Assembly: GCF_024223415.1 (NCBI RefSeq)
Contig: NZ_CP100500.1
Direction: 5' to 3' (one strand)
Source: Escherichia coli
GTDB taxonomy: Bacteria > Pseudomonadota > Gammaproteobacteria > Enterobacterales > Enterobacteriaceae
Length of the DNA stretch: 64,000 nucleotides
Under the pieces are notes generated by a model, which saw only the letters and a list, made by a program, of their open reading frames with translations, made no database searches and had not been told where the DNA came from. Made by a program: the position numbers and the translations under genes. Shown piece after piece: positions 8,073-58,581 of the stretch (its first letter is position 1; every line of letters starts with the position of its first letter).

Positions 8073-10009
8073 AACCCACTTTATATACTGCTACTGGTGA
8101 GTGCGTTACGCCAGGCCGTGAACTGGGCAAAGGCGGTGAAGGCGCGGTTTATGATATCAATGAGTTTGTCGATAGCGTCGCCAAGATTTATCACACGCCG
8201 CCACCCGCCTTAAAACAGGACAAACTTGCCTTTATGGCTGCGACAGCTGACGCGCAATTGTTGAATTATGTCGCCTGGCCGCAGGCAACGCTTCACGGTG
8301 GACGAGGCGGAAAAGTTATCGGTTTTATGATGCCAAAAGTTTCTGGTAAAGAACCGATTCATATGATCTATAGCCCGGCACATCGTCGTCAACGTTACCC
8401 TCATTGTGCGTGGGATTTTCTACTCTATGTTGCGCGCAATATTGCTTCATCTTTTGCTACGGTTCACGAGCACGGGCACGTCGTGGGTGACGTAAACCAG
8501 AACAGTTTTATGGTAGGTCGCGACAGCAAAGTGGTACTGATTGATAGCGACTCCTTTCAGATTAACGCCAATGGCACACTGCATTTATGCGAAGTCGGCG
8601 TGTCGCATTTTACGCCGCCAGAGCTACAAACCTTGTCGTCATTTGTCGGCTTTGAACGCACAGAAAATCACGATAATTTTGGCCTTGCGTTGCTGATTTT
8701 TCACGTCTTGTTTGGTGGCCGGCATCCTTATTCTGGTGTGCCGCTTATCTCTGATGCGGGTAATGCGCTGGAGACGGATATTACCCATTTCCGTTATGCC
8801 TACGCGTCAGATAATCAGCGACGTGGTTTAAAACCGCCGCCACGATCGATTCCGCTATCGATGTTACCGAGTGATGTTGAAGCCATGTTTCAGCAGGCAT
8901 TCACGGAAAGTGGCGTGGCAACCGGGCGTCCGACGGCTAAAGCGTGGGTAGCGGCACTTGATTCTCTGCGCCAACAGTTAAAGAAATGTCCCGTTTCGGC
9001 AATGCATGTTTATCCCGCTCATTTGACCGACTGCCCGTGGTGTGCGCTGGATAATCAAGGCGTTATCTATTTTATTGATCTCGGCGAAGAGGTCATTACC
9101 ACCGGCGGGGATTTTGTGCTGGCAAAAGTCTGGGCGATGGTGATGGCGTCAGTAGCACCGCCAGCATTGCAACTGCCATTACCCGATCATTTCCAACCGA
9201 CTGGCAGGCCGCTTCCTTTAGGCCTGTTACGGCGCGAATACATCATTCTGCTTGAGATCGCACTGTCAGCATTATCGCTGCTGCTTTGCGGCCTTCAGGC
9301 AGAACCGCGTTATATTATTTTGGTTCCTGTGCTGGCGGCTATCTGGATTATTGGCAGTCTGACAAGCAAAGCGTACAAAGCAGAAGTTCAGCAACGCCGT
9401 GAGGCATTTAATCGTGCGAAAATGGACTATGACCATTTAGTCCGCCAGATCCAGCAGGTAGGCGGCCTGGAAGGTTTTATCGCCAAACGGACGATGCTCG
9501 AAAAAATGAAGGACGAAATTCTCGGGTTACCGGAAGAAGAGAAACGCGCTCTGGCAGCACTTCATGACACTGCAAGGGAACGGCAGAAGCAGAAGTTTCT
9601 GGAGGGATTTTTTATTGATGTTGCCTCTATTCCCGGCGTTGGCCCTGCGCGTAAAGCGGCGTTACGGTCTTTTGGTATTGAAACAGCCGCAGATGTTACC
9701 CGTCGTGGCGTTAAGCAAGTGAAAGGGTTTGGCGACCATCTGACCCAGGCGGTTATCGACTGGAAAGCGAGCTGTGAACGCCGTTTTGTGTTCAGGCCGA
9801 ATGAAGCGATAACGCCAGCAGACAGACAAGCGGTAATGGCGAAAATGACCGCCAAACGACATCGGCTGGAATCGACGTTGACTGTCGGCGCGACAGAGTT
9901 GCAGCGATTCCGCCTTCATGCTCCAGCACGGACCATGCCGTTGATGGAACCTTTACGTCAGGCGGCAGAAAAACTGGCTCAGGCGCAGGCAGATTTAAGC
10001 CGCTGCTGA
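8069..10009 (+). CDS. yegI: Ser/Thr protein kinase-like membrane protein YegI
   Basis: ORF track starts at GTG 8060; the ATG at 8069 overlaps the pphC stop (ATGA). Kinase-like N-terminal region, hydrophobic segment near residues 390-430, C-terminal helix-hairpin-helix motif (IPGVGPARKAALRSFGI). Confidence 0.85.
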   Translation: MKPTLYTATGECVTPGRELGKGGEGAVYDINEFVDSVAKIYHTPPPALKQDKLAFMAATADAQLLNYVAWPQATLHGGRGGKVIGFMMPKVSGKEPIHMIYSPAHRRQRYPHCAWDFLLYVARNIASSFATVHEHGHVVGDVNQNSFMVGRDSKVVLIDSDSFQINANGTLHLCEVGVSHFTPPELQTLSSFVGFERTENHDNFGLALLIFHVLFGGRHPYSGVPLISDAGNALETDITHFRYAYASDNQRRGLKPPPRSIPLSMLPSDVEAMFQQAFTESGVATGRPTAKAWVAALDSLRQQLKKCPVSAMHVYPAHLTDCPWCALDNQGVIYFIDLGEEVITTGGDFVLAKVWAMVMASVAPPALQLPLPDHFQPTGRPLPLGLLRREYIILLEIALSALSLLLCGLQAEPRYIILVPVLAAIWIIGSLTSKAYKAEVQQRREAFNRAKMDYDHLVRQIQQVGGLEGFIAKRTMLEKMKDEILGLPEEEKRALAALHDTARERQKQKFLEGFFIDVASIPGVGPARKAALRSFGIETAADVTRRGVKQVKGFGDHLTQAVIDWKASCERRFVFRPNEAITPADRQAVMAKMTAKRHRLESTLTVGATELQRFRLHAPARTMPLMEPLRQAAEKLAQAQADLSRC

Positions 10010-17434: not shown

Positions 17435-19288
17435 ATGAGACGATTTCTGACGACGCTGATGATACTCCTGGTCGTGCTGGTGGCCGGGTTATCTGCGTTA
17501 GTGTTGCTGGTGAATCCGAATGATTTCCGCGACTATATGGTCAAGCAAGTTGCTGCACGTAGCGGTTATCAATTGCAGCTCGACGGGCCACTGCGTTGGC
17601 ACGTCTGGCCGCAGCTTAGTATCCTCTCCGGGCGAATGTCTCTCACCGCCCAGGGCGCAAGCCAGCCACTGGTTCGCGCCGACAACATGCGTCTGGACGT
17701 GGCGCTTTTACCACTACTGAGTCATCAACTGAGCGTTAAGCAGGTGATGCTAAAAGGGGCAGTGATCCAACTGACGCCGCAGACGGAAGCGGTGCGCAGT
17801 GAAGACGCTCCGGTTGCACCGCGCGACAATACCTTGCCGGATCTGTCAGACGATCGCGGATGGTCGTTTGATATATCCAGTCTTAAGGTGGCGGACAGCG
17901 TTCTGGTGTTCCAGCATGAAGATGACGAGCAGGTGACAATCCGCAATATCCGCCTGCAAATGGAACAAGATCCCCAACATCGTGGCTCATTTGAGTTTTC
18001 TGGGCGGGTTAATCGCGATCAGCGCGATCTCACGATATCCCTTAACGGTACGGTAGATGCTTCTGATTATCCGCATGATTTAACGGCGGCTATTGAACAA
18101 ATTAACTGGCAGTTGCAGGGTGCCGATTTACCAAAACAAGGTATTCAGGGGCAGGGGAGTTTCCAGGCCCAGTGGCAGGAGTCACATAAACGCCTTTCAT
18201 TTAACCAAATCAGCTTGACCGCCAATGACAGTACGCTGAGCGGGCAAGCACAGGTTACGCTGACAGAGAAACCGGAATGGCAGCTGAGGCTGCAATTCCC
18301 GCAACTGAATCTTGACAACCTCATCCCGCTTAATGAAACAGCGAATGGTGAAAACGGTGCCGCGCAGCAGGGGCAGAGCCAATCAACGTTGCCGCGCCCG
18401 GTTATTTCTTCGCGTATTGATGAACCGGCCTATCAGGGACTGCAAGGCTTTACGGCTGATATTTTGTTGCAGGTCAGTAACGTGCGCTGGCGCGGAATGA
18501 ATTTTACAGATGTTGCCACGCAAATGACCAACAAGTCGGGTTTGCTGGAAATTACTCAACTGCAGGGCAAGCTTAACGGTGGACAGGTTTCACTGCCGGG
18601 CACGCTGGACGCGACATCAATAAATCCGCGGATAAACTTCCAGCCACGGCTGGAAAACGTTGAGATTGGTACCATTCTGAAGGCGTTTAACTATCCGATT
18701 TCGTTGACCGGAAAAATGTCACTGGCTGGTGATTTCTCCGGTGCTGACATAGATGCCGACGCATTCCGCCACAACTGGCAAGGACAGGCACATGTCGAAA
18801 TGACCGACACGCGCATGGAAGGGATGAACTTCCAGCAGATGATTCAGCAAGCGGTAGAGCGTAATGGCGGTGATGTGAAGGCCGCTGAAAACTTTGATAA
18901 CGTGACGCGGCTTGACCGCTTTACCACCGATTTGACGTTGAAGGATGGCGTCGTGACGTTAAACGACATGCAAGGTCAATCGCCTGTGCTGGCGCTGACA
19001 GGGGAAGGCATGTTGAATCTGGCAGATCAAACCTGCGACACCCAGTTTGATATTCGGGTCGTGGGTGGCTGGAACGGGGAAAGCAAACTGATTGATTTCC
19101 TGAAAGAAACGCCAGTACCGCTGCGGGTTTATGGCAACTGGCAGCAACTCAATTACAGCCTGCAAGTGGATCAGTTACTGCGCAAACATCTACAGGACGA
19201 AGCGAAACGTCGCCTGAATGACTGGGCCGAGCGGAATAAAGATTCCCGTAATGGCAAAGATGTGAAGAAGTTGCTTGAGAAGATGTAG
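17435..19288 (+). CDS. asmA: Outer membrane assembly protein AsmA
   Basis: 617 aa; N-terminal TM anchor MRRFLTTLMILLVVLVAGLSALVLLV then a large periplasmic domain. Confidence 0.9.
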   Translation: MRRFLTTLMILLVVLVAGLSALVLLVNPNDFRDYMVKQVAARSGYQLQLDGPLRWHVWPQLSILSGRMSLTAQGASQPLVRADNMRLDVALLPLLSHQLSVKQVMLKGAVIQLTPQTEAVRSEDAPVAPRDNTLPDLSDDRGWSFDISSLKVADSVLVFQHEDDEQVTIRNIRLQMEQDPQHRGSFEFSGRVNRDQRDLTISLNGTVDASDYPHDLTAAIEQINWQLQGADLPKQGIQGQGSFQAQWQESHKRLSFNQISLTANDSTLSGQAQVTLTEKPEWQLRLQFPQLNLDNLIPLNETANGENGAAQQGQSQSTLPRPVISSRIDEPAYQGLQGFTADILLQVSNVRWRGMNFTDVATQMTNKSGLLEITQLQGKLNGGQVSLPGTLDATSINPRINFQPRLENVEIGTILKAFNYPISLTGKMSLAGDFSGADIDADAFRHNWQGQAHVEMTDTRMEGMNFQQMIQQAVERNGGDVKAAENFDNVTRLDRFTTDLTLKDGVVTLNDMQGQSPVLALTGEGMLNLADQTCDTQFDIRVVGGWNGESKLIDFLKETPVPLRVYGNWQQLNYSLQVDQLLRKHLQDEAKRRLNDWAERNKDSRNGKDVKKLLEKM

Positions 19289-19306
19289 GTTACCAGGTGA
19301 CCAGTC

Positions 19307-19346
19307 CTGTAGGCCTGATAAGACACGTAAAGCGTCGCATCAGGCG
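19307..19346. repeat. REP element downstream of asmA
   Basis: ctgtaggcctgataagacacgtaaagcgtcgcatcaggcg. Confidence 0.55.
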
Positions 19347-19580
19347 TTCGTGGCGGCATCATTATATTCTGAATATGTAAGATCGAAGGCTGTGCCGTTC
19401 ACTTGATGTTCCTCGTTACTATGGAACGCTCAAGCCGGTGAACGTGCCAGGGTGGCTCAATCGCCACCACCCTGGCAACCCGGGCCCACACCCCCGCTGT
19501 GATGTCCATGTACCACAGACAACGCTTCATTGCTGAAGTTATAAGGCGTTACGCAGCATCGGGTAAAATGACCGATACCA

Positions 19581-21164
19581 TCACACCTCGTACTCCATCT
19601 CGCCATCCTTACGCAGCGGTATAATCTGCACCTTCTGCACGCGATGGCTTTCTACCTGCAACGTTTTAAGCAAATAATCCCCCACCTGAACTTCTTCGCC
19701 AGGTTTTGGAATACGCTGCAAATACTCCATCAACAGCCCGGCAATGGTGTGATATTCACGTTTTTCATCCAGCGGCAGCGGCACATATTGCACCAGATCC
19801 TCCAGCGGCATATGACCATTCGCCGTCCAGGAACCGTCCGCATTCTTCTGAATATCATGGCGGGCGTCGATCTCTTCCACTTCGTTCGGTAAGTTACCGG
19901 CAATGGTTTCAGTGACGTCACTTAATGTCACAATCCCTTCCACCGAGCCAAACTCATCCACCACAAAAGCAAAGTGCGTGCGGGCATTACGGAACTGCTC
20001 CAGGGCAGGTAACAACGGCAAGGTTTCCGGGAACACCAGCGGCTGGCGAATCAACACCCGCAGGTTGAGCGGTTCGCCGCGCAGAGACTGTTGTAGCAGG
20101 TCGATAACGTGAACAACACCGAGCAAATCTTCTGCGTCATCACCGTCGGTAACCACCAGCCGCGTATGCTGATTTCGCTCCAGCAACTGGCGGATCTCGT
20201 CTTCCGGCGCGTTGAGATCGATATGCTCAATATCGTGGCGCGACGTCATAATGCTGCTGACGGTACGCTGGTTAAGATTTAGTACCCGCTCAATCATCCG
20301 CCGTTCCTGCGGATTAAAGATCTGCTGGTTACCATGATCCACCAGCATGGACGCGGTTTCGGCGTCCAGTTCCGCATCTTCTTTTTGCCCGCTAAGCAGG
20401 CGCATTACCGCTTCGGTAGTCCGCTGGCGCAGCGTCTGGTTAGCGGAAAGAAAACGTCGCCGGTTAAAGATAGCCAACTGATTGAGCGCCTCGATCATCA
20501 CCGAGAAACCAATGGCAGCGTACAGGTAGCCTTTCGGAATGACGAAGCCGAAACCTTCTGCCACCAGGCTAAAGCCAATCATCAACAGGAAGCTTAAGCA
20601 GAGAATAACGATCGTCGGGTGACTGTTAACAAATTGCGTTAACGGCTTGCTGGCCATCAACATCAGGCTGATAGCGATAACCACGGCGGCCATCATGACC
20701 AGTAAATGGTCGACCATCCCGACGGCGGTAATCACTGAGTCGAGTGAGAAAATGGCGTCCAGTACCACAATTTGCGTCACCACGCCCCAGAACTTCGCAC
20801 CTTTGCGTTGTGTGGGATTATTGCTGTCTTTCCCTTCCAGCCGTTCGTTCAGCTCCATCGTGGCTTTGAACAACAGGAAGAAACCACCAAACAGCATGAT
20901 TAAGTCGCGGGCGCTAAAGGTAAACGAGCGGAAGCTGAACAGCGGTTGAGTCAGGGTGACCAGCCAGGAGATTGACGCCAGCAGTAACAGGCGCATTAAC
21001 ATTGCCAGCAGCAGCCCGGTAACCCGTGCGCGGTCACGCTGCTTCGGCGGTAGTTTTTCGGCGAGGATGGCAATAAAGACCAGGTTATCAATGCCGAGGA
21101 CCAGTTCGATCACAATCAGCGTGATTAACCCGGCCCAGATAGACGGATCGGCAATCCATTCCAT
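19581..21164 (-). CDS. yegH: TerC-family membrane protein with CBS and CorC/HlyC domains (YegH)
   Basis: ORF track 19581..21230 uses a TTG; trimmed to the ATG at 21164 giving [16 protein letters not shown]... (527 aa). Confidence 0.88.
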
Positions 21165-21325
21165 AGTAAGTACAAAACCTATTCGTTGTATGACAAATGT
21201 CACAATTCGATCATGGATAAATCGGGGCAAAAATGCAATGTTGCAGCACTATTTATCTCATATTATTTGAGGGTAATAACCTCACATTATCCCTGAATTA
21301 AAAGTGGTAATAATAAAACATTATT

Positions 21326-42963: not shown

Positions 42964-44358
42964 ATGCCATTTAAAAAACTCTCCCGACGCACCTTCCTGA
43001 CGGCAAGCTCCGCGCTTGCCTTCCTTCATACGCCTTTCGCCCGAGCACTTCCTGCCCGGCAAAGCGTTAACATTAACGACTACAACCCACACGACTGGAT
43101 TGCTTCATTTAAACAAGCCTTCAGCGAAGGGCAAACGGTCGTCGTGCCTGCCGGATTCGTTTGTGACAATATCAACACCGGCATCTTCATTCCTGCAGGT
43201 AAAACGTTACACATCCTTGGAAGCCTGCGCGGTAACGGCAGAGGGCGATTTGTCTTACAGGACGGCAGCCAGGTGACAGGGGAGGAGGGCGGCAGTATGC
43301 ATAACATCACCCTGGATGTGCGCGGCTCTGACTGCACCATCAAAGGGCTGGCGATGAGCGGCTTTGGTCCGGTAACGCAGATTTATATCGGCGGCAAAAA
43401 CAAACGGGTCATGCGCAACCTGACCATCGATAACCTCACTGTCAGCCACGCTAATTACGCCATCTTACGCCAGGGATTTCATAACCAGATTATCGCTGCC
43501 AACATCACCAACTGTAAGTTCAGCGACTTACAGGGCGACGCCATTGAATGGAATGTGGCGATTAACGACCGCGATATTTTGATATCCGACCACATCATCG
43601 AGCGCATCAACTGTACCAACGGCAAAATCAACTGGGGCATCGGCATAGGCCTTGCGGGAAGCACTTACGATAATAATTACCCGGAAGATCAGGCAGTGAA
43701 AAACTTTGTCGTGGCGAATATCACGGGATCGGATTGTCGACAGTTGATCCATGTTGAAAATGGTAAACATTTTGTTATTCGTAATATCAAAGCCCGCAAT
43801 ATCACGCCGGATTTCAGTAAGAAAGCAGGCATTGATAACGCCACGGTCGCTATTTACGGTTGTGACAATTTCGTGATTGATAATATTGAAATGATTAATA
43901 GCGCCGGGATGTTAATCGGCTATGGGGTAATTAAAGGCAAATATCTCTCGATACCGCAAAATTTCCGAGTGAGTAATATTCAACTGGATAATACCCACCT
44001 TGCTTACAAATTGCGCGGCATCCAAATCTCCGCCGGGAATGCCGTCTCCTTTGTGGCACTGACTAACATTGAGATGAAGCGTGCGTCGCTGGCGCTTCAC
44101 AATAAACCGCAACATCTTTTTATGCGAAATATCAATGTGATGCAGGAATCCACTGTTGGACCCGCACTGAGCATGAACTTCGACATGCGCAAAGACGTAC
44201 GAGGTGTCTTTATGGCGAAAAAAGAAACACTCCTGTCTCTTGCAAATGTTCATGCGGTGAATGAAAAAGGGCAAAGCTCCGTCGATATCGACAGGGTTAA
44301 TCACCATATTGTTAATGTGGAAAAGATTAACTTTAGATTGCCGGAACGGAGGGAGTAG
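42964..44358 (+). CDS. wcaM: Colanic acid biosynthesis protein WcaM
   Basis: 464 aa with Tat-like N-terminus ([14 protein letters not shown]), beta-helix-like. Confidence 0.9.
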
Positions 44359-44532
44359 ATTTGCGACCATTCCTGGAAAAATGGATCCATACTTAGGAAC
44401 AATGCTACTGCAATCCACAACGAAGCGGCGTAACATCACAAGTAATTCAGTAATCAATTCAGGGTAATTGATGCTGGCGAAAAAAATCGAACAAGCTATA
44501 ATTCAGCAACCATTTTACAGGTGGATGAAATA

Positions 44533-45426
44533 ATGACGAATTTAAAAGCAGTTATTCCTGTAGCGGGTCTTGGGATGCATATGTTGCCTGCCACTAAGGC
44601 GATTCCCAAAGAGATGCTACCGATCGTCGACAAGCCTATGATTCAGTACATTGTTGACGAGATTGTGGCTGCAGGGATCAAAGAAATCCTCCTGGTAACT
44701 CATGCGTCCAAGAACGCGGTCGAAAACCACTTCGACACCTCTTATGAATTAGAATCTCTCCTTGAACAGCGCGTAAAGCGTCAATTGCTTGCGGAAGTGC
44801 AGTCCATCTGTCCACCGGGCGTGACCATTATGAACGTGCGTCAGGGCGAACCTTTAGGTTTGGGTCACTCCATTTTATGTGCACGACCCGCCATTGGTGA
44901 CAATCCATTTGTCGTGGTGCTGCCGGACGTTGTGATCGACGACGCCAGCGCCGACCCGCTGCGCTACAACCTTGCTGCCATGATTGCACGATTCAACGAA
45001 ACGGGTCGTAGCCAGGTGCTGGCAAAACGTATGCCGGGTGACCTCTCTGAATACTCGGTCATCCAGACCAAAGAACCACTGGACCGTGAAGGTAAAGTCA
45101 GCCGCATTGTTGAATTTATCGAAAAACCGGATCAGCCGCAGATGTTGGACTCAGACATCATGGCCGTTGGTCGTTATGTGCTTTCTGCCGATATTTGGCC
45201 GGAACTTGAACGCACGCAGCCAGGTGCATGGGGGCGTATTCAGCTGACTGATGCCATCGCTGAACTGGCGAAAACACAGTCCGTTGATGCCATGCTGATG
45301 ACAGGTGACAGCTACGACTGCGGTAAAAAAATGGGTTATATGCAGGCATTTGTGAAGTATGGACTACGCAACCTCAAAGAAGGGGCGAAGTTCCGTAAAG
45401 GGATTGAGAAGCTGTTAAGCGAATAA
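44533..45426 (+). CDS. galF: UTP-glucose-1-phosphate uridylyltransferase homolog GalF
   Basis: ORF track starts at GTG 44521; ATG at 44533 gives [30 protein letters not shown] (297 aa). Confidence 0.95.
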
Positions 45427-45683
45427 TGAAAATCTGACTGGATGTAACGGTTGATAAGAAAATTATAACGGTGGTGAAAATTCGCAGGAAAAGTAACTTG
45501 TTGCGAATATTCCTGCCGTTATTTGATATAAATAACCAGCATAACAACGAGTTAATATTAGGATTTTAGTCAAAGTTTCCTAGGATTTTTCTTGTTTCCA
45601 GAGCGGATTCGTAAGACAATTAGCGCCTTAGTTTTACGGGTTAGCGTGAGTGAGCCATGCTCGTTACATCGCAGGTGTGTATT

Positions 45684-45722
45684 CAGTGTTCTGGTAGCTG
45701 TAAAGCCAGGGGCGGTAGCGTA
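45684..45722 (+). promoter_or_regulatory. JUMPstart with ops element in the O-antigen cluster leader
   Basis: cagtgttctggtagctgtaaagccaggggcggtagcgta; ops core GGCGGTAGCGT. Confidence 0.8.
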
Positions 45723-46450
45723 CATATGAGGAAACATTTCAGCTGAAATAATTGAATATTCCAAAGCATGAGAGTTACTTAATTTGTAAAAGTGCTACAG
45801 TACAATAGAGAGGATCTCTGTCTTCATATTGTTTGCGATCATCTCAGATGAAGTTATTGATTTCATCTTTTAATAGAAGAACTGAATAGAATATGTATGG
45901 CATTATCATTTTGAACAATAATAATAGAATAAAAGGAAGACATCGAAATGGTGGTCAAACATTACATCAGTTCTATTGATTTGACAGCAGAGAAGTCTGC
46001 CACAGCGAACCAAAATTACTGACTCGTAGAGAAGAAGTTGCACTGGCTGCTGAATGGTAATGGATGAAGACGACAGAGAAATAAGAAAAGAAAACTCAGC
46101 AGAATTACCTTCAGGGATATAGCGCATCACTATTTATGTATTGACTAAAGATAAAGCATTTAAGAAAGGTTAAGGTGTAAGGTGTGAAAAGCAGCCATGG
46201 GTAAGGTTCGTTTCGCACAGGCGTTACTTACAGTAGATGGTCGGCACATCGTAAGACTTGGTCTGATTGCCAGATCATATGTGAGACATCAGAAAAAATT
46301 TAAGCAAATATATAAACAGTAGGTGATGTTGTTAAAGTATAAAACAGATATGGTAGTCAAATAAAGCAAAGTATCGTTGGAAAAATATCTGTAAAATCCC
46401 TGGTGCGTTCACGTGAGTTAGAGTAAAAGTAATGAGGAGGTTCTATTTTT

Positions 46451-47551
46451 ATGAGTTTTGAAAATTGGTATATAAAAGATATTGAACCATATAAACTGGC
46501 TAGTCATAAAGTATGGGACGATGTTTGCAACCGAGATATATTAAAATTAGATTGGAATGAAGCAACTATTCCTGCTAGTCCGTATGTAAAGAAAAGAATT
46601 TTAGAAACTATTGATAAAATAGAGTTTAGATATTACCCAAACGTAAACAACATGGAGTTGTTAACAGCTATCGCGGGATATACTCAACTCAACATAGAAA
46701 ATATTCAATATTTTCCAAGTTCTGATGCTGCACATGAATATATAGCATCAGTATTCTTAACATCAGAAGATAGAGTGTTAATATTGTCCCCGACATATGA
46801 TAATTTCAGGCTAACCTGTCAAAGTAGAGGGGCGGAAATATCGTATGTTAATTGTTTTGATGGGGCGTTTCAATTCCAGAGTGAATTATTTATAAATGTT
46901 TTGAAAGAAACAAAGCCTAAAATTGCATATATGTGTAACCCTAACAATCCGACGGGTTCAATAATAAGGCGGGAATATATAAAGAAAATATTAACTCTTT
47001 TTCCTGATATCTTGTTTGTTTTAGATGAGGCTTATATTGAATTTTCATCTGGTTCATGTGGTGATTTTGTTAAGGAATATGATAATTTGATAGTATCAAG
47101 AACCTTCTCGAAGGCATTTGCGCTGGCCAATTTTAGGATTGGTTATATATTGGCTTCACCTAAACTTATAGTTTCAATTAATAAAATAAGAAATTCTAAG
47201 AATGTAACGACATTATCACAAGAGGCTGCAGTTGCTGCATTGCATGATTCTCAATATATGCAAGCTTATGTTAATGAGGTGATTGTAGCGCGACAATACT
47301 TTATTGAAGAGATAAATAGAAGGTTTGGAGATAAGCTGATAGCATATGAAAGTCATGGTAATTTTGTTCTTGTAAAATGCTCCTCGGAAATACTAAAAAA
47401 AACATTAATAAAAGGCCTGGAGGAACAAGATATTTTCATAAGAGATTTGTCACACAAGGAGCTCAATGGTTTACATATAAGGATTACTATTGGAACACGG
47501 ACTCAAATGAGGCAGGTGCTTAATGTTATTGAAAATATTATTGGTCAATAA
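46451..47551 (+). CDS. PLP-dependent class I/II aminotransferase-fold enzyme, HisC/CobD-like
   Basis: 366 aa; motifs CNPNNPTG, DEAYIEF and SRTFSKAFALANFRIGY (candidate PLP-lysine); low-GC codon usage. Confidence 0.8.
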   Translation: MSFENWYIKDIEPYKLASHKVWDDVCNRDILKLDWNEATIPASPYVKKRILETIDKIEFRYYPNVNNMELLTAIAGYTQLNIENIQYFPSSDAAHEYIASVFLTSEDRVLILSPTYDNFRLTCQSRGAEISYVNCFDGAFQFQSELFINVLKETKPKIAYMCNPNNPTGSIIRREYIKKILTLFPDILFVLDEAYIEFSSGSCGDFVKEYDNLIVSRTFSKAFALANFRIGYILASPKLIVSINKIRNSKNVTTLSQEAAVAALHDSQYMQAYVNEVIVARQYFIEEINRRFGDKLIAYESHGNFVLVKCSSEILKKTLIKGLEEQDIFIRDLSHKELNGLHIRITIGTRTQMRQVLNVIENIIGQ

Positions 47552-47587
47552 TATGTTTGCAGGCGCTCTTTATTATGTTGGTCAGCG

Positions 47588-48277
47588 ATGAAATATAAAT
47601 ACGCTTTTTTTGATTTTTGTGAAACGTTGGTGGATTTACAAACTGCTGATGATTACATTTCTGATGTGATTATTAAGAAGGAAGGCCGATGGAGTTATAA
47701 GCTTGCGATTATTGGCTTCTTAAGGAATAGATGGGTTAATAAATTATTTAATAAATTGTTTAACAATTATGATAACCCTAAGTCTTTGATTTTGAAGCTG
47801 GTTAAAGGGTTTGACTATGGGGTCTTTTCTGTTGCTGCAGAAGAATATTGTAAAAAACTAATGGAGTATTACTTAATTGATGATGTTATTTCGGAGATGC
47901 TAGAATTAAAAAAAAAGAATTATCAAATAATCATTGTCTCTGGGGGATATGATATATATATAAAGCATTTTTTTTCCTCAGTTGTAGATAAGGTTATAGC
48001 TACCGAGATTGATTTTTCTGATTCTAAGTGTCTGGGGAAAATATCAGGTATTGATTGTTTAGGTGTGAACAAGTTAAACAAAATAAAGAAATATATTGAT
48101 GTCAACACAATAGATTATGAAAATTCCTACGTCTTTTCTGACAGTAAAACAGATTTGCCTCTTTTTTCGTTAGCAAAGAATAAAATTGTCATATCTAAGA
48201 AAAAAAACAAATCGTGGGTTAATGAGCAAAATGAAGAATTTATTGAAAAAGTATGGTGTCCTAAAAAAATATGCTAA
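47588..48277 (+). CDS. HAD-superfamily hydrolase, probable phosphatase
   Basis: 229 aa; HAD motif I-like AFFDFCETL (second Asp replaced by Cys), motif II IVSGG, motif IV-like FSDSKTDLPLF. Confidence 0.7.
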   Translation: MKYKYAFFDFCETLVDLQTADDYISDVIIKKEGRWSYKLAIIGFLRNRWVNKLFNKLFNNYDNPKSLILKLVKGFDYGVFSVAAEEYCKKLMEYYLIDDVISEMLELKKKNYQIIIVSGGYDIYIKHFFSSVVDKVIATEIDFSDSKCLGKISGIDCLGVNKLNKIKKYIDVNTIDYENSYVFSDSKTDLPLFSLAKNKIVISKKKNKSWVNEQNEEFIEKVWCPKKIC

Positions 48278-49145
48278 GAAGTATTATTACTATACTTCTT
48301 CTTTTTTAATGTCAGATGAATTATATATAAAAAGGAAGTTTAAGAAAATTTTCGGATATGCTTTGGATATCAATAATCCAAAAACAATGAATGAAAAGAT
48401 GCAATGGATGAAGTTACATATGCATCCTCAGGAATATAATATTTTTGCAGATAAACTTCTTGTTAGAAAATACGTGGAAGAAAAGATTGGTAAAAATATA
48501 CTAATACCTATTTTTGCAGTATACGAAAGTGAAGCCGAATTAAATATAGATTCTTTGCCTGACGAACCATTTATCATTAAGACGAATCATGATAGTTCTG
48601 GTGGAATAATCGTGAGAAACAAATCAGAACTCAATATAAAGGATGCAAAAAGTTTTTGTCGATTTAATTTGAATAACAATCATTATTATATATCAAGAGA
48701 GAAACATTATAAACATTTAGACAGAAAAATTATTATAGAGAAGCTCCTTCTTACAAAATCCGGAAAAATCCCAAATGATTATAAAATAAATTGTATAAAT
48801 GGGCGTGCTGAATTTATATATTGCTCTATTGATAGAGAGGGGAAAAATTACCGAAAGATTTATGACAGGTCTTGGTGTGAAATGGATTTTAAATGGGGAA
48901 ATAAAGATGAGTTTGAGCATAAATTTACTGGGCCCAATATTGAAAAGCCTGATAATTTAGATAAAATGATTGAGTATGCGGAGATATTATCAATGGGGTT
49001 TCCTTATCTAAGAATAGATTTATACAATGTTGATGGGGAAATATATTTAGGAGAAATAACTATTTATCATGGGGGAGGGTTTGATGTTATTGAGCCAAAA
49101 GAATATGACTTATTTTTTGGTAATAAGATTCATTTAGAAAAATGA
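48222..49145 (+). CDS. TupA-like ATP-grasp amidoligase (start uncertain; ORF track begins at TTG 48186)
   Basis: N-terminal NPKTMNEKMQWMKL matches the conserved P-x-TFNEKIQWLK region of TupA-like ATP-grasp proteins; overlaps the upstream HAD ORF by 56-92 nt in another frame. Confidence 0.7.
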   Translation: MSKMKNLLKKYGVLKKYAKKYYYYTSSFLMSDELYIKRKFKKIFGYALDINNPKTMNEKMQWMKLHMHPQEYNIFADKLLVRKYVEEKIGKNILIPIFAVYESEAELNIDSLPDEPFIIKTNHDSSGGIIVRNKSELNIKDAKSFCRFNLNNNHYYISREKHYKHLDRKIIIEKLLLTKSGKIPNDYKINCINGRAEFIYCSIDREGKNYRKIYDRSWCEMDFKWGNKDEFEHKFTGPNIEKPDNLDKMIEYAEILSMGFPYLRIDLYNVDGEIYLGEITIYHGGGFDVIEPKEYDLFFGNKIHLEK

Positions 49146-50362
49146 AAAATATTATAAAGAATGGGCTGTCTCTTTCTTTTATAAAGGCAGTGACTTTGCT
49201 ATTTCCTATCGCCATTGTACCTATCCTGATATCAAAGATAGGAATGGATAAATATGGGGAAGTTGTATTTATCACTGCAATATATTCATATTTTATTAAT
49301 GTGGTTAGCTTTGGATTTGAAGAATCAGCCACTCAAGTCTTGGCAAAGAATCACTTCTCAGGTTTGTCGAAAAATGAATATATTTTGTCTGTTATCGTGC
49401 TCAAGGGCATAATTGCTGTTTCTATAATTTTTGTCATTTGTGGTTTGTATTTTTTGGGGATGGGAGGAGATTTTTTCTCATTGCTATTTTGTATTACCAT
49501 CGTCGCTGAGGTTTTTAATCCCTTATGGTTTTATCAGGGGGTCGAAAGAATTCATATTATCTCAGTGAGCTCTATAGTATCAAAATCATTATATACAATA
49601 TTAATATGTCTGTTTGTGAGATGTAATAATGATTATTACCTTGTTCCTGTATTTTTAGGCGGTGCGAATATTCTTTCTTATGTCTATCCGTTTGTTGCTA
49701 TGTGTAATGAGTGTAAATTTCGGCGCAATGACTTGAACTATAATAATTTGAAAAAAGTATTATTAGACTCAGTTAGTATATTCCTTACTAATTTTATCCC
49801 AACATTGAAAGATAAGATAGGTGCTATATTGATAGGTTTATCTTTCTCCATGAATATCGTAGCGATTTATGATATAATTATAAAAATACTTAATTTATTG
49901 TTTATTCCAGTAAATGTAATAAATGCATCGTTCTATCCAACACTTTCCAGGAAGAGAGAAAAGAAAATATTAATGCAATTAATGTATATAAATTTGGGTT
50001 ATGCTATTTTTGCATTTGTTATCGTATGTAATTTTTTTGATTATTTTTCCAATATCTACTTCCAATCCTATTCAGCGTATTCCGATGCTGTAAAAATAAT
50101 ATCTGTGTCTGTTGTTTTTTACTCAGTGAGTTTAATGATTGGAAAAAATATCCTATTGGTCACTGGTTTTTATCATCATGTGCTGCTCAGTATTATATTA
50201 TCGACAGGATTTTATTTGATGTTTGTCTGCTTTATGTATTCTCTTAGTTCATTGAGTATATATTCATTATGCTTTTTAACAACAGCATCATTCTTATTTG
50301 AAATGCTGGTTAGGTTAATTATGTTAAAGAAGACTAAGGCCTTGTTTTTTTTTAAATATTAA
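49142..50362 (+). CDS. wzx: O-antigen flippase Wzx
   Basis: 406 aa polytopic membrane protein, MOP-family-like; ATGA overlap with the upstream gene. Confidence 0.8.
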   Translation: MKNIIKNGLSLSFIKAVTLLFPIAIVPILISKIGMDKYGEVVFITAIYSYFINVVSFGFEESATQVLAKNHFSGLSKNEYILSVIVLKGIIAVSIIFVICGLYFLGMGGDFFSLLFCITIVAEVFNPLWFYQGVERIHIISVSSIVSKSLYTILICLFVRCNNDYYLVPVFLGGANILSYVYPFVAMCNECKFRRNDLNYNNLKKVLLDSVSIFLTNFIPTLKDKIGAILIGLSFSMNIVAIYDIIIKILNLLFIPVNVINASFYPTLSRKREKKILMQLMYINLGYAIFAFVIVCNFFDYFSNIYFQSYSAYSDAVKIISVSVVFYSVSLMIGKNILLVTGFYHHVLLSIILSTGFYLMFVCFMYSLSSLSIYSLCFLTTASFLFEMLVRLIMLKKTKALFFFKY

Positions 50363-50376
50363 TTAGGTATGGAAGT

Positions 50377-51246
50377 ATGAAAACAGTGTCAGTAATCATT
50401 CCAACATATAGGGATTGGGAAAGATTATCTAAATGTTTAAATGCAATAAAAAAACAAAGATATCCCGCAGAGTTTATTCAGGTAATAGTCATTAATAATG
50501 ATCCATTTGATGATAATCCATTTATAAATAGTGATGAATATAAAAATGTAAAGTTTTTAGTAGAGGGAAAGGTGGGTTCTTATGCAGCAAGAAATAAAGG
50601 CCTAAATTATGCAAAAGGGGAGATTATAGCATTCACTGATTCAGATTGTGTCCCAGATGAGTTTTGGATTTCAAATGCTGTTCGACATTTTGAAGAAAAT
50701 AGTAAATGCACAAGAATTGGTGGGAAAATTGAATTATTTTTCAAAGGTAATGTAAGTAAAACCCTAGCTGAATTTTATGAACAAAGTTATGCTTTCCGGC
50801 AGAAAGAGTTTGTTCAACGACAGGGAATGGCTGCAACAGCTAATATGTTCTCATATAAGAAGGTTTTTGATGATATATCATATTTCAATGATTCATTGAT
50901 GTCGGGAGGAGATGCCGAATGGGGAGTTAGGGCAAATAATAAAGGATATAGAATAGACTATTGTGATTCTGTCACTGTTTATCATCCGGCAAGAGAATCG
51001 ATGAAACAAATTTTTATAAAAAATCGAAGGGAAGCCAGTGGTAAAATAAAAAATAAACGAAAAGTGTTAATCAATTTTGTAATGTCATTGCTCCCACCAT
51101 TAAAATCGTTGATGTATATTAGGTATCATGGGAATAGTATATATAAAGTATTAATTGCATTTTTTATTAGATATTTAATGAGGATTGATACGGCTATAGA
51201 ACAAATCCGGGTTGTGTTTTTTAATAAGAAAGCCGAGCGATTATGA
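50377..51246 (+). CDS. Glycosyltransferase family 2
   Basis: 289 aa; VSVIIPTYRDWERLSKCLNAI and FTDSDC motifs. Confidence 0.8.
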   Translation: MKTVSVIIPTYRDWERLSKCLNAIKKQRYPAEFIQVIVINNDPFDDNPFINSDEYKNVKFLVEGKVGSYAARNKGLNYAKGEIIAFTDSDCVPDEFWISNAVRHFEENSKCTRIGGKIELFFKGNVSKTLAEFYEQSYAFRQKEFVQRQGMAATANMFSYKKVFDDISYFNDSLMSGGDAEWGVRANNKGYRIDYCDSVTVYHPARESMKQIFIKNRREASGKIKNKRKVLINFVMSLLPPLKSLMYIRYHGNSIYKVLIAFFIRYLMRIDTAIEQIRVVFFNKKAERL

Positions 51247-52487
51247 AAATGTTTTTTTTTGTTCTTTGCGTGTTCTTTTTAATAAATGGCTTTTATATAT
51301 ATCCGCCATTTAATAGTGCAATTTTAGCACCGATGTTAGCTTTATTGGGAGCACTAACATTAAGGAAGAAAATAACGATAAAGCCCTTTTCTGACTTGTT
51401 AGATCCTTCATTTTTATTTTGGTTTCTTTTTGTAAGTTGTTATTGTCTATCAATTGCAGTTTTCTCAAAAACATATGACTTATCATATGTAAAGAACTTT
51501 ATATCACAACTTGTTCAATTTGCTATTATTTTATTTAGTTTTTTTATGTTATCATCAATAGATGGAGCATTTTCTCTTAAGATAGAAAAAATTATCGTAT
51601 ATAGCTTCGTTTTACAATCTGTTATTCAGATAGCAGCATTTCTATATCCTGGAATAGCCGATATTATTCATTTATTTTATGATAAAGATAAAGTAGAGCG
51701 ATTATACATCAATTACGCAGGAGTAAGAGGACTGGCGTTGACTGGTTCCCCAGGGTGGGGAATATCTGTTGGATATGCTATATCATTTTTACTTTTTGTT
51801 AAAGCATTTGTTATTAATCAGAAATTGAAGTTTTCTAGTATTATAGTTGCAATACTACTTTTAATCGGTGCAATGTTTACTGGTCGCAGTGCTTTTATTG
51901 GTGTTATTTTCGGTGGGGGGTATTATCTTGTATCAGGAGAGGATATTACAAAAAAAATCAAAACTATAATTCTATTTTTAATTCTTCCTGCATTAATATG
52001 CATGTTAACATATATAATGTTGCCATCCCTATCCTCACTATTCGGAGATAAGGTTTTCCCATTTGTCTTTGAGTTCTATTATAAATACAAAGACACAGGT
52101 GAGTTATCTACTAAATCTACAGATATTTTGTTGAATATGTGGGATCTTAACGTTGATGTTACTGACATTGTGTTCGGTACAGGTAATTTCACAAATGACA
52201 AAACTGGAGAGTATTATTTCGGTAGTGATGTGGGATATCTCCGGAATTTATTGTATGGTGGTTTTTTTTGGATGTTCACTCTTTTTATTTATCAGGTTTC
52301 ATTATTTGGACAACTGCGTTGGTGGAAAAAAAGAAAGGATATTAAATTATTTGTATTCATTTTTATAGCCATGTTAATGTTGCTTGAGATGAAAGCAATG
52401 GCCATAGGATATAATAAATATGTGTTTACAGTTTCTATTTTATTAGGATTGTCATTTAAAGAGAGATACAGAAATGCTTACCAATAA
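51243..52487 (+). CDS. wzy: O-antigen polymerase Wzy
   Basis: 414 aa, about 10-12 predicted TM segments with a large loop; no similarity to Wzx; position. Confidence 0.7.
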   Translation: MKMFFFVLCVFFLINGFYIYPPFNSAILAPMLALLGALTLRKKITIKPFSDLLDPSFLFWFLFVSCYCLSIAVFSKTYDLSYVKNFISQLVQFAIILFSFFMLSSIDGAFSLKIEKIIVYSFVLQSVIQIAAFLYPGIADIIHLFYDKDKVERLYINYAGVRGLALTGSPGWGISVGYAISFLLFVKAFVINQKLKFSSIIVAILLLIGAMFTGRSAFIGVIFGGGYYLVSGEDITKKIKTIILFLILPALICMLTYIMLPSLSSLFGDKVFPFVFEFYYKYKDTGELSTKSTDILLNMWDLNVDVTDIVFGTGNFTNDKTGEYYFGSDVGYLRNLLYGGFFWMFTLFIYQVSLFGQLRWWKKRKDIKLFVFIFIAMLMLLEMKAMAIGYNKYVFTVSILLGLSFKERYRNAYQ

Positions 52488-53385
52488 AGTCTCTGTTGTT
52501 ATTCCGACACATAGTCGGCCTAATCTTTTGCGAAAAGCTATAGAAAGTGTTTTGAATCAGACATATAAGCCATGTGAAATTATTGTTGTTGATGATACAG
52601 AATCTGAAGAAACCGCTCGATGTTTATCTGTCATAAATAGCGATATACCTATTAGGCTAAAGTATAACACTTCTTCTGGTGCCGGCTCGTCTAGGAATTT
52701 AGGTGCAAAGATTGCTAATGGTGATTTTGTGGCTTTCTTGGATGACGATGATCTCTGGCTTCCAACTAAATTAGAAACGCAGATGTATGAATTGCGGCAT
52801 ACACAATATGATGCAATTTTTTGTCAGATGATAATAAATTATGAAGGGGTAAACATACAATATTCTACTCGAGCCAAAAATGTAGCTGAACCATTAAAAG
52901 AAATATGTATTGAAAACTTTATTGGTGCCACAATATCCTGTGTTATACGCCGTTCAATTTTTATGAAATTAGGAGGGTTTGATGAAAGATTCAAGGCTAG
53001 AGAGGAATATGATTTATGGATTCGAGTTATTCAATCTAATGCTAAAATTAAAATAATAGAAAAACCATTAACTATTTCAAATCGTTCTTTTGTACGGAAT
53101 CGTATTTCTTCTAACATAAATAATTATGAGCACGGAATATCACTTATTAACGAAAAATATGCTCGATTGATTACTGAAATATTAACTCCCAATGAGAGAA
53201 GAATAAGATTATCGAAACAATATGAATTTCTAGCTGCTCAGGCAATATCTTTAGGCCTTAAAATGACAAGCTCAAAGTATTATTTTAAGTCTTTTTTAAC
53301 AATTCCTTCTCTTAAATCGTTATTTCTTTCATTGTTGAGTATTATTTCTCCGCTAATGATAATAAAAATTAGAAGCAAACTTTAA
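52474..53385 (+). CDS. Glycosyltransferase family 2
   Basis: 303 aa; VSVVIPTHSRPNLLRKAIESVLNQTY and FLDDDD motifs. Confidence 0.8.
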   Translation: MLTNKVSVVIPTHSRPNLLRKAIESVLNQTYKPCEIIVVDDTESEETARCLSVINSDIPIRLKYNTSSGAGSSRNLGAKIANGDFVAFLDDDDLWLPTKLETQMYELRHTQYDAIFCQMIINYEGVNIQYSTRAKNVAEPLKEICIENFIGATISCVIRRSIFMKLGGFDERFKAREEYDLWIRVIQSNAKIKIIEKPLTISNRSFVRNRISSNINNYEHGISLINEKYARLITEILTPNERRIRLSKQYEFLAAQAISLGLKMTSSKYYFKSFLTIPSLKSLFLSLLSIISPLMIIKIRSKL

Positions 53386-53427
53386 TTATATCATCATTAT
53401 TAGACAGTCAATAACTGTGGAGTTAAC

Positions 53428-54690
53428 ATGAGTTCTGGGTTTAATTCTATTGAAAAGAACTTTTCAAGATTTTTATCTTACTTTCCAGGGATAAAAAAAA
53501 TAATTAAAAAAGCTTACATAAGGATAAATTTTTATATCTACAAAAAAGAACATAAAGTAAAAAGTGATTACAGCATCCATACGATTGATATCGATAGTTG
53601 CGAAACTTTTTTTGGATACTATGATAAATGTCCCGATAATGGTAAAGGAGATGTTATCGTTTGTGCATCGACTATATCTACCCACAACATACCTGATCCA
53701 AACAATCCGATTAAATTATATGTGTACAATCTTTGTACTAAAGATAAGGTGTTCATTGCTAATATTTCTGCATATAATTGGCAACAAGGATGTCGTGCTC
53801 ATTGGCTAAACGATGATTTACTTATTTATAACTTTTACTCTCATGAAAAGCGTAATTATTCGTCGAAAATATACTCAATCATAGAGAAAAAACATATAGC
53901 AGAGTTCTCTTTTGCGGTACAAGACAGTTTTCTTGGTAATTATTTTTTATCTATAAACTATTCTCGCTTAATGGCGTTACGCCCAGATTATGGATATAGA
54001 AATAAAAGTTTTTCTTGGGAATTGTTTGATCTGGCTAATGATGGTATATGGAAAGTCGATATTAGCTCTCGTAAGGGAGAATTAATCGTTACATTTTGTG
54101 ATATTATTAATTTTGAGTTTGAAAATAATGATGAGTATAAACATAAAGTTAACCATGTAATGATTTCTCCCGATGGTGAAAAATTTATATTTATACATCG
54201 TTATTATTATAAAGGTAAACGGAATGATAGATTAATGTTGTCAACCAAAGACGGACATTTAATTTCAGTATTAGCTAATAATAAAATGGTTAGTCATTGT
54301 TGTTGGCTTTCCAATGATAAAATTATCGGTTATTTAAGATCTGATAGTGGTGATGATAGTTATTGGGTTATTGATATAAATAATCTGGAGTCATACCAAC
54401 TCTTAGATGGTGAATTACTAAAATATGGCGATGGTCATCCATCGAATTGTAAAAATCTATTAGTGACGGATACATATCCTAATAAGTCAAGATATCAGAA
54501 ATTATTATTAGTCGATATGGATAATGATAATTACCAGGAACTTGGTGAGTTTTTACATGATCTTAGTTTTTCTGATGAGACTAGATGTGACTTACATCCT
54601 CGCTTTTCTCATGATGGCAGCATGATTTTTTTTGATTCAGTTTTTTCTGGAAAACGCAAGTTATGCTATTTACAGTTAATTAATAAATAA
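53428..54690 (+). CDS. Hypothetical protein, possibly beta-propeller-like; function unknown
   Basis: 420 aa, no GT signature recognised; repeated SPDG/SHDG-type strands (MISPDGEKFIFIH, HPRFSHDGSMIFFDS). Confidence 0.55.
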   Translation: MSSGFNSIEKNFSRFLSYFPGIKKIIKKAYIRINFYIYKKEHKVKSDYSIHTIDIDSCETFFGYYDKCPDNGKGDVIVCASTISTHNIPDPNNPIKLYVYNLCTKDKVFIANISAYNWQQGCRAHWLNDDLLIYNFYSHEKRNYSSKIYSIIEKKHIAEFSFAVQDSFLGNYFLSINYSRLMALRPDYGYRNKSFSWELFDLANDGIWKVDISSRKGELIVTFCDIINFEFENNDEYKHKVNHVMISPDGEKFIFIHRYYYKGKRNDRLMLSTKDGHLISVLANNKMVSHCCWLSNDKIIGYLRSDSGDDSYWVIDINNLESYQLLDGELLKYGDGHPSNCKNLLVTDTYPNKSRYQKLLLVDMDNDNYQELGEFLHDLSFSDETRCDLHPRFSHDGSMIFFDSVFSGKRKLCYLQLINK

Positions 54691-54695
54691 AGTGA

Positions 54696-55511
54696 TTGTA
54701 TATGAAAGTCGCAGTCGCAATGTCTGTATATAAGAATGATAATCCTATATACTTAGAGAAAGCCATTAAAAGTATATTGAATCAAACATATAAAAATATC
54801 CATTTATATATAGAGGTCGATGGAGTCATATCTCCACAATTATATCAATGTTTATCCTCTTTTATCTCATGCTCAAATATTAGTATAAATTTTAATAGTG
54901 ATTGTAAAGGATTGGCATTTAGATTAAATAATATTATTGATAAGGTTATATTTGATGGAGGATATTCGTATATTGCAAGAATGGATGCTGATGATATATC
55001 TCGACTCGATAGGATTGAAAAACAAGTAATATTTATGCAGACCCATAAGGATATTTCTGTTGTTGGTTCTGATGTTCTAGAAATAGATGAGGATGATAAT
55101 TTTTTATTTTACAAAAAAATGCATTGTGATCATGAGATCATCGTTCGAGATATTATTAAGAAATGTCCAATAAATCATCCCTCAGCATTTTTTAAAATAT
55201 CTTCATTTTATATAGTTAGATATAATTCCACCTTGAAGAACACACAGGATTATTACTTGTGGATTGATTTTATTTATAATAATTTAAAGATCTCAAACAT
55301 CAATGAGCCTTTGTTAAAATTTAGAGTGAATAGAGATTTTTATTCACGGAGAGGGTTTGATAAAGCTATCAATGATGTAAAATCACGAATATATGCCTTG
55401 CGAAAGTTGAATTGCTATTCACTAAGGAATATATTTCATATATTAATGCTTTTTTTTCTTAGAGTATCTCCGACTGTAATAAAAAAAATTGCATACAATA
55501 GACTTAGATAA
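54696..55511 (+). CDS. Glycosyltransferase family 2-like
   Basis: 271 aa; VAMSVYKNDNPIYLEKAIKSILNQTY and ARMDADDIS motifs; start may be the ATG at 54702. Confidence 0.75.
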   Translation: MYMKVAVAMSVYKNDNPIYLEKAIKSILNQTYKNIHLYIEVDGVISPQLYQCLSSFISCSNISINFNSDCKGLAFRLNNIIDKVIFDGGYSYIARMDADDISRLDRIEKQVIFMQTHKDISVVGSDVLEIDEDDNFLFYKKMHCDHEIIVRDIIKKCPINHPSAFFKISSFYIVRYNSTLKNTQDYYLWIDFIYNNLKISNINEPLLKFRVNRDFYSRRGFDKAINDVKSRIYALRKLNCYSLRNIFHILMLFFLRVSPTVIKKIAYNRLR

Positions 55512-55698
55512 ACTTCATCTACCACGCTATAGTCGGTAAGTGGTCTTCGTTTTTCTTAAAAAAGAAGCAACGTGACATATTTTTCTTTGTTACAGAAATA
55601 TTAAGATATCCATTATCATTTTTTCACATTTGATAAAACTTATCTTATATATCCAATTACATATATATATTGCGATAGAGTCTTGACAGGAGTAAACA

Positions 55699-57105: not shown

Positions 57106-57135
57106 TCTGATTTAAATCAATTAATCGATGCAAGG

Positions 57136-57160
57136 CCCGGAGAAATCCTTCGGGTTTTTT
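57136..57160 (+). terminator. Rho-independent terminator after gnd
   Basis: cccggagaaatccttcggg hairpin (7-bp stem with one G-U pair) followed by tttttt. Confidence 0.6.
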
Positions 57161-57349
57161 ATTATACAAAGTGGCAGGTTATGGCTTTTTTATAATTTAT
57201 GGTTAAAAAGCGATATAATACATAGACGCACAGCAGGATTACTGCCTTGACAGTTCATCCGCATCAGCGTTAAAAATCCCGCAGTAGATGAAGATGTGTT
57301 GGTAGATTAATGACCACTCTAAATGTTTAACCGGAAGAAGTCAGAGCTA

Positions 57350-58516: not shown

Positions 58517-58540
58517 TTATTTTGTTTCATACTAAGAAAA

Positions 58541-58564
58541 GGCCCTAATAAATTAGGGCCTTTT
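58541..58564. terminator. Bidirectional terminator between convergent ugd and gla
   Basis: ggccctaat-aa-attagggcc perfect 9-bp inverted repeat, flanked by aaaa upstream and tttt downstream. Confidence 0.6.
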
Positions 58565-58581
58565 CTTATGATTTTGTAAAA

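Follow-up and report, generated by a model that had tools for sequence, protein, structure and literature searches.

A probable decayed copy of the TRIP1/RRS repeat between the convergent genes asmA and yegH of Escherichia coli

Layout of the asmA-yegH gap

The window analyzed here is a single stretch of E. coli DNA of 64 kb (64,000 nucleotides), in which the genes asmA and yegH converge on a gap of 292 bp (19289..19580), in agreement with the 290 bp given in the original prediction. The following features frame this gap:

17435..19288, + strand, asmA coding sequence, left flank (ORF list; RefSeq annotation of the near-identical strain 2013C-4991)
19312..19345, no strand assigned, REP palindromic unit, outside the TRIP1 relic described below (inverted repeat; sub-threshold naRNA4/REP-type Rfam match at 19312-19384)
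19496..19580, no strand assigned, locus-specific spacer from the repeat to the yegH stop codon (no counterpart in canonical TRIP1; wholly deleted in K-12)
19581..21230, - strand, yegH (TerC-family) coding sequence, right flank (ORF list; RefSeq annotation of strain 2013C-4991)

The spacer at 19496..19580 differs in E. whittamii and in the cryptic Escherichia clades. The reference annotation of K-12 (NC_000913.3) lists no repeat or RNA feature in the asmA-yegH gap.

Two inverted repeats had been pointed out in this gap, and both are present. The first, originally given with a stem of 8 bp, is a perfect 11-bp stem (TGCCAGGGTGG/CCACCCTGGCA, 19445-19455 with 19467-19477) that closes a loop of 11 nt. 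This hairpin is beyond chance, since 2000 dinucleotide shuffles of the gap produced one like it in 4 cases, and the entire 64-kb window has no more than three hairpins of its class. The second is a 7-bp stem (CGTTCAC/GTGAACG, 19396-19402 with 19438-19444) with 35 nt between its arms and with an inner stem, GTTCC/GGAAC, at 19408-12 and 19423-27. The 7-bp stem is by itself within chance (0.58 expected per shuffle); it is validated by the compensatory changes observed across the repeat family. The description of the gap as structured, non-coding, repeat-like DNA apart from the REP unit at 19312-19345 is thereby borne out.

The gap was also said to hold no ORF, which is correct in that we found no credible one, but mechanical ORFs of 32-49 amino acids do exist in it. 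Those of 43, 32 and 49 amino acids span the allele-specific deletion junction at 19485/19486 and therefore cannot exist in the same form in the full allele. The fourth, of 41 amino acids (19499-19624, + strand), lies to the right of the junction, and the part of it inside the gap is missing from the K-12 allele. A small-protein reading of the gap was rejected on the positions of these ORFs.

A TRIP1/RRS left arm holds both hairpins

TRIP1 repeats were reportedly described by Rudd in 1999. Five loci, TRIP1a, b, c, d and e (aqpZ-ybjE, putP-ycdN, yohI-yohG, alx-sstT and copA-ybaP, respectively), hold 99% of the copies (Li et al. 2024, PMC10888264), and the TRIP1 copies at lysO and dusC have been described as RRS, 222-bp "replication risk sequences" (Pham et al. 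2023/2024; PMC11194060, PMC10287960). The asmA-yegH gap is not among the five catalogued TRIP1 loci, and neither gene name occurs in PMC10888264, PMC11194060 or PMC10287960. Against this background, the following features were recognized in the window:

19390..19487, + strand (the C-rich strand), left arm of a TRIP1/RRS-family repeat, holding both hairpins noted above (covariance model R1; best though weak nhmmer match at the same place)
19396..19444, no strand assigned, helix A, CGTTCAC (19396-19402) with GTGAACG (19438-19444), enclosing GTTCC/GGAAC (aligned to canonical TRIP1 GCGCTCCTT/AAGGAGCGC)
19445..19477, no strand assigned, helix B, TGCCAGGGTGG with CCACCCTGGCA, 11 bp perfect (aligned to GCAGGGGGCGGC/GCCGCCCCCTGC)
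19480..19485, no strand assigned, deletion junction with the one CCGGGC that is left of the direct repeat CCGGGC/CCGGAC (window aligned to the full-length alleles L002 and L004)
19486..19495, + strand, remaining right end of the TRIP1 copy, CCACACCCCC (in the full allele, the canonical profile stops matching at L002 1864, in the equivalent stretch)

The covariance model R1 was built exclusively from 18 canonical TRIP1/RRS left arms and comprises 99 positions and two helices of 9 and 12 pairs. When the whole 64-kb window was searched with the filters off, the model gave a single significant match, at 19390-19487 on the + strand, with 39.9 bits, an E-value of 1.9e-7 and all of model positions 1-99 aligned, and the next-best match in the window had an E-value of 0.53; these E-values are rough because the calibration was shortened. 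It follows from this match that both inverted repeats are helices A and B of a TRIP1/RRS left arm. Sequence-only searches were marginal: an nhmmer profile made from 18 canonical TRIP1/RRS copies, with the asmA-type rows excluded, placed its best match in the window at the right position with an E-value of 0.06-0.16, and BLAST of canonical TRIP1 copies against the window returned nothing significant. The left arm of the window is about 50% identical to the canonical arms. For this reason, the assignment of the relic rests on the structure-aware model together with the full allele, which is intermediate.

Copies of the asmA type and of the canonical type alike have a left arm of 99 nt, and its pairing is kept between the two types despite their divergence. 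In helix A, three pairs are changed on both sides with pairing retained (CG to UA, CG to AU and CG to UA), and helix B carries a compensatory GC to AU change in eight of the eight asmA-type copies. In canonical copies, 96.8% of the cells are paired, as against 42-64% when the partners are slid. The hairpins would thus represent an inherited family structure kept by family-wide compensation, rather than a locally evolved RNA gene.

The alternative offered in the original prediction, that the inverted repeats are extra palindromic units of the REP/BIME type beside the annotated REP, appears extremely improbable. The relic does share with REP/BIME elements that it is intergenic, palindromic and located between convergent genes, and it directly adjoins a true REP; one strain even has a TRIP1 copy flanked by two inverted REPs. 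However, the REP-type (naRNA4) Rfam match is confined to 19312-19384, the segment 19390-19487 aligns end to end with the TRIP1 left-arm model, and the relic bears no likeness to REP arms. Unlike REP/BIME elements, to which it shows no sequence relationship, TRIP1 has a much longer unit and is a low-copy repeat, found in a median of three places per genome as opposed to hundreds.

The full allele and the deletion in the window

By sequence, the match to TRIP1 is much stronger in other alleles of the same gap. With the canonical nhmmer profile, the full allele (L002) gave an E-value of 2.8e-52 over profile positions 12-273, an inverted allele gave 1.1e-52 on the opposite strand, and the K-12 allele gave 4.3e-15. 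By BLAST, the core is 82-89% identical to canonical copies. The full allele also matches other places in nearly every genome (median of three, at 82-86% identity), at the loci aqpZ-lysO, dusC-yohP and putP-efeU, where the copies are known as TRIP1a, TRIP1c and TRIP1b, respectively (Li et al. 2024, PMC10888264).

Of the stem-loop architecture of TRIP1/RRS, the "double-Y" of PMC10888264, the window has one half. Both left-arm helices, in an arm of the same length, are found in the window. The central domain with its two hairpins is shared by the full allele, where a CAGCCCACATCCATGTGGGCTG block is identical, but it is deleted from the window. Like other members of the family, the asmA-yegH copy is GC-rich, intergenic, located downstream of a membrane-protein gene and found in both orientations, and its internal deletion has a parallel in TRIP1b, which lacks 125 bp. 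The nearest type is TRIP1d at alx-sstT, with 89% identity over 181 nt. On the other hand, the asmA-yegH copy differs from the known ones in its new locus, in its arm of about 50% identity, in having no RRS G-quadruplex (G4), in having its G-rich strand on the leading-strand template and, in the window, in the deletion of the central domain.

We also considered whether TRIP1d and the asmA-yegH copy derive from a duplication of a gene together with its repeat, as both adjoin TerC-family genes (alx and yegH). This was rejected because the repeat has opposite orientations relative to the two TerC genes.

Relative to the full allele, 159 bp, corresponding to the central domain, are missing from the window between 19485 and 19486. 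In L002 the two copies of the direct repeat begin at 1692 and 1851, a distance of exactly 159 bp, at the base of the closing stem, whose arms are 17 nt long. This geometry suggests that the central domain was lost by replication slippage across the hairpin, from CCGGGC to CCGGAC. The K-12 allele carries a different deletion, of 178 bp, between AT(C/T)GGGTA repeats.

Based on these observations, we consider it highly probable that the asmA-yegH region is a decayed TRIP1/RRS copy from which the central domain was deleted. The ancestral copy is about 265 bp long in a gap of 451 bp, with a 99-nt two-helix left arm followed by a central domain of about 160 nt, in which a long closing stem surrounds two hairpins with A(U/G)GGAU loops. 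The left arm, about 10 bp of the right end and the locus-specific spacer are what remains of this arrangement in the window.

Alleles of the gap across E. coli

When the window gap was compared by megablast with 5426 complete E. coli genomes, it proved to vary between strains. For an allele census, a query spanning both gene ends was used and 60 genomes were sampled evenly out of 5416 matches. The alleles are listed below with the length of the gap, its content and the number of sampled genomes:

451 bp, full copy, 15/60
292 bp, window type, 4/60
273 bp, K-12 type, 27/60
67 bp, REP only, 3/60
745 bp, RelE/ParE toxin and HTH antitoxin, no repeat (O157:H7 and others), 8/60
458 bp, entire copy in reverse orientation, flanked by two inverted REPs, 1/60
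partial matches, no gap length, 2/60

Alignment of representative strains identified the 451-bp version as the source of the other alleles. Besides, a scan with the 18-mer of the TRIP1 core, with one genome per species, detected asmA-type copies in E. whittamii and in cryptic-clade Escherichia, and it follows that the asmA-yegH copy predates E. coli and that the full allele is the ancestral one. In 1425 of the 5426 genomes (about 26%) the full allele was covered to at least 80%, and in 1768 genomes the window gap was covered to at least the same extent; from the difference between these two counts, the window-type allele is present in about 6% of genomes (about 6-7% overall). Strain 2013C-4991, which is 99.7-99.9% identical to the window in this region, has the window-type allele, and strain MS8345 has the full one. 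The left arm is kept in the full, window and K-12 alleles, that is, in about 77% of the sampled genomes.

The original prediction was to fall if there was no conservation beyond generic REP-like palindromes. Conservation was in fact found, of the kind that belongs to a dispersed repeat family and not to a locus-specific RNA gene. The asmA-yegH gap constitutes a sixth TRIP1/RRS locus beyond the five-locus survey (PMC10888264), with an intact copy in about a quarter of E. coli genomes. Its omission from that survey is probably explained by the diverged left arm together with the 80% length coverage that was required. As an allelic series, the locus illustrates how a structured repeat decays, with an intact form, two independent internal deletions, an inversion between REPs, a REP-only form and replacement by toxin-antitoxin genes.

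In strain 100117 (L095 587-878), the TRIP1 copy is complete and runs the other way relative to asmA and yegH, with two inverted REP units on its flanks, an arrangement that suggests a REP-mediated inversion, and the 67-bp REP-only allele (L094) looks like the matching REP-to-REP deletion. The 745-bp segment, present in about 13% of the sampled genomes, replaces the REP and the TRIP1 copy, and its toxin-antitoxin genes lie on the yegH strand (L093 490-1234, O157:H7 strain ATCC 43890). The E. whittamii copy (L068, within 8451-8825) has a GC-rich insertion of about 98 bp just after the 5' arm of the closing stem, possibly another small repeat.

G-quadruplex and replication activity

Helix B is the counterpart of the RRS segment that bears the G-quadruplex sequence on the opposite strand. 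The 20-mer of the RRS G4 (GGGGGTGCAGGGGGCGGCGG) occurs at lysO and dusC of K-12, in each case on the strand expected, but none of the window, full and K-12 alleles of asmA-yegH contains it. One further match was found in the window:

19470..19495, - strand, G4-regex match GGGGGTGTGGGCCCGGGTTGCCAGGG (arises at the deletion junction; the regex finds nothing in the full and K-12 alleles)

By G4Hunter-type scoring it reaches 1.32, compared with 1.84-1.92 for copies of the RRS-lysO/dusC type, and this junction-made match is weak and probably incidental. The G-rich strand of the asmA-yegH copy is the leading-strand template, as indicated by the positive GC skew on the + strand of the window and in agreement with the K-12 orientation, and the RRS G4 is known to lie on the lagging-strand template (PMC11194060).

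It might be argued that the relic in the window still acts as a DNA element of the RRS type, stalling replication and leaving post-replication gaps, as it belongs to the RRS family, retains a very stable GC-rich 11-bp hairpin and has acquired the G4-regex match on the - strand at 19470-19495; in addition, some function in the reverse orientation is reported for RRS (PMC11194060). We regard this as very unlikely. The relic lacks the RRS G4 20-mer, its G-runs are broken (GGGTTGCCAGGGTGGTGG), the score of the junction match falls below those of the RRS copies, its G-rich strand has an orientation opposite to the RRS rule, and more than half of the element is gone from the window. The authors of the RRS study, moreover, recognize no further G4 site in K-12 (PMC11194060), and the two RecA/SSB peaks described as major in K-12 are those at lysO and dusC (PMC10287960).

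The decayed TRIP1/RRS copy in the window is probably inert because the two features with an ascribed function, the RRS G-quadruplex and the GGA-loop domain, are both lacking. That the relic now has no specific function is suggested by the polymorphism of the locus and is the most likely reading, held less firmly than its identity. At most, it may give the converging transcripts of asmA and yegH stable stem-loops in their 3' untranslated ends, and there may be selection on the left arm, which survives in about 77% of the sampled genomes. The asmA-yegH copy, without the canonical G4 and with the opposite strand orientation, offers a natural control for RRS activity.

Relationship with the TwoAYGGAY motif and a possible RNA role

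TwoAYGGAY is a candidate RNA motif (Rfam RF01731; Weinberg et al. 2010, PMC2864571) with a gathering score of 43 bits in Rfam. Its model had no match in the window at E-values up to 10. The full allele (L002 1700-1860, G-rich strand) scored 31.5 bits, which is sub-threshold, as are the 28.4-30.6 bits of other E. coli TRIP1 copies (L005, L006 and L007), giving an E. coli range of 28-31.5 bits. The RRS homologs of Kluyvera, which are 88-92% identical to TRIP1a, scored above the gathering score, with 54.2 and 44.6 bits (copies at L044 9515-9676 and L076 3847-4011). The TRIP1 core 18-mer also retrieved genuine TwoAYGGAY members, with 72-79 bits in Lachnospiraceae and 57 bits in a Thiotrichaceae genome.

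The structural comparison points in the same direction. The central domain of the full allele, read on the yegH-sense strand, consists of a long closing stem and two hairpins with the loops ACAUGGAUGU and ACAGGGAUGU, as in TwoAYGGAY, and the letters of its first hairpin (GCCCACAUGGAUGUGGGC) are exactly those seen in genuine members from Lachnospiraceae. With AUGGAU and AGGGAU loops and P1 arms of 17 nt that are 88% complementary, the full allele is a near match to the motif. It differs in that its second loop has a G in place of the Y of the motif and in that the 99-nt TRIP1 left arm lies outside the Rfam model. The window has lost both TwoAYGGAY hairpins and P1. From these comparisons of sequence and predicted folding, we conclude that the core of TRIP1/RRS corresponds to the TwoAYGGAY motif of Rfam. 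This correspondence with a motif that also occurs outside the enterobacteria bears on whether RRS are an enterobacterial invention or a spreading structured repeat. In the literature on AYGGAY, among the matches listed, we found no link of RRS/TRIP1 with TwoAYGGAY.

The SELEX consensus site of CsrA is RUACARGGAUGU, and the loops ACAUGGAUGU and ACAGGGAUGU closely resemble it. A likeness to CsrA sites has been proposed for the TwoAYGGAY Rfam family in a preprint, and in the literature TRIP1/RRS are treated as DNA-level elements of genome architecture. TRIP1/RRS could instead be the enterobacterial branch of a TwoAYGGAY family of structured RNAs or repeats that is also found in gut Clostridia, with an ancestral copy that would have placed two to three GGA-loop hairpins in the yegH 3' UTR as a CsrA-binding or CsrA-titrating RNA; deletions such as that of the window would then be natural loss-of-function variants. 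We put this forward as a speculation that is quite unlikely to hold.

Another proposal is that the gap encodes a small RNA with the hairpins as its functional structure, which would either originate from a 3' UTR, that of yegH or that of asmA, or be transcribed independently. The segment 19385-19580 indeed folds better than its shuffles, with z-scores of -3.4 on the + strand and -2.0 on the - strand, its helices are kept by compensatory changes, and the core of the parent family corresponds to the candidate RNA motif TwoAYGGAY. Across the relic, the asmA 3' UTR would read the C-rich strand and the yegH 3' UTR the G-rich strand, and the alifold energy is better on the latter, yegH-sense strand (-83.1 vs -69.5 kcal/mol). 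This strand preference was discarded as evidence, being confounded by G content: G-rich strands gain G-U pairs by composition alone, which makes it uninformative.

However, a consensus scan of 19000-19900 on both strands detected no promoter-like (sigma-70-like) and no intrinsic-terminator-like sites, and neither hairpin is followed by a U-tract. The Rfam covariance search that had been suggested as a check, run on the gap at permissive E-values, returned the sub-threshold REP-type match and a chance match to RAGATH-5 (E = 6.2), leaving the window with no Rfam match beyond REP. The RNA-motif-like part is exactly the part that is deleted in the window, the asmA-yegH repeat is dispensable across E. 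coli, a large fraction of which has it deleted, inverted or replaced, and the covariation is family-wide and fits a structure in single-stranded DNA equally well. A search of the literature on yegH/asmA intergenic RNAs gave nothing relevant, and one on RSA, Box C and IRU gave nothing useful. Altogether, the earlier suggestion of a 3'UTR-derived sRNA is unsupported by the promoter, terminator, Rfam and strain comparisons, and we consider a small RNA quite improbable here. What had been noted as a structured region belongs to a known repeat, in a broken copy, and is not worth pursuing as an sRNA gene.

Further observations on the repeat family and the window

In the spacer just outside the TRIP1 copy, the - strand of the window at 19497-19518 can form the hairpin CUGUG-GUACAUGGACAU-CACAG with an AUGGAC loop of the AYGGAY type. 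This hairpin occurs in the E. coli full and window alleles, is absent in K-12 and is different in E. whittamii and the cryptic clades.

TRIP1c/RRS-dusC was found inverted in place, with the order of the flanking genes kept, between K-12 (yohP-dusC, L092 107-377) and strain MS10858 (L006 1919-2190), the two copies being 89% identical. The inversion looks like a replacement or conversion by another, oppositely oriented copy, and it would switch the G4 between the leading- and lagging-strand templates.

In Edaphovirga cremea, units matching the TRIP1 left-arm model are repeated in tandem, the period being about 209 bp (L055 10942-11534, with 2.8 copies; L052 209-722; L047 12577-12881). The genome has at least 11 matches to the core 18-mer, and the element is tandem or multicopy there. 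The RRS of Pseudocitrobacter, Kluyvera and an Enterobacteriaceae MAG is accompanied by a second, partial copy, oppositely oriented and at a distance of 100-250 bp (L018 2218-2431; L085 5787-5883; L076 4104-4316; L044 9215-9423; L031 1444-1657). These second copies consist of a diverged left arm and a unit of two hairpins, for which the match to TwoAYGGAY, over positions 46-112, reaches up to 49 bits.

Elsewhere in the window, at about 44000-60000, the G+C content falls to 0.31-0.37 with a strong positive GC skew, which would fit a polysaccharide (O-antigen) gene cluster, gained by horizontal transfer, downstream of the colanic acid region.
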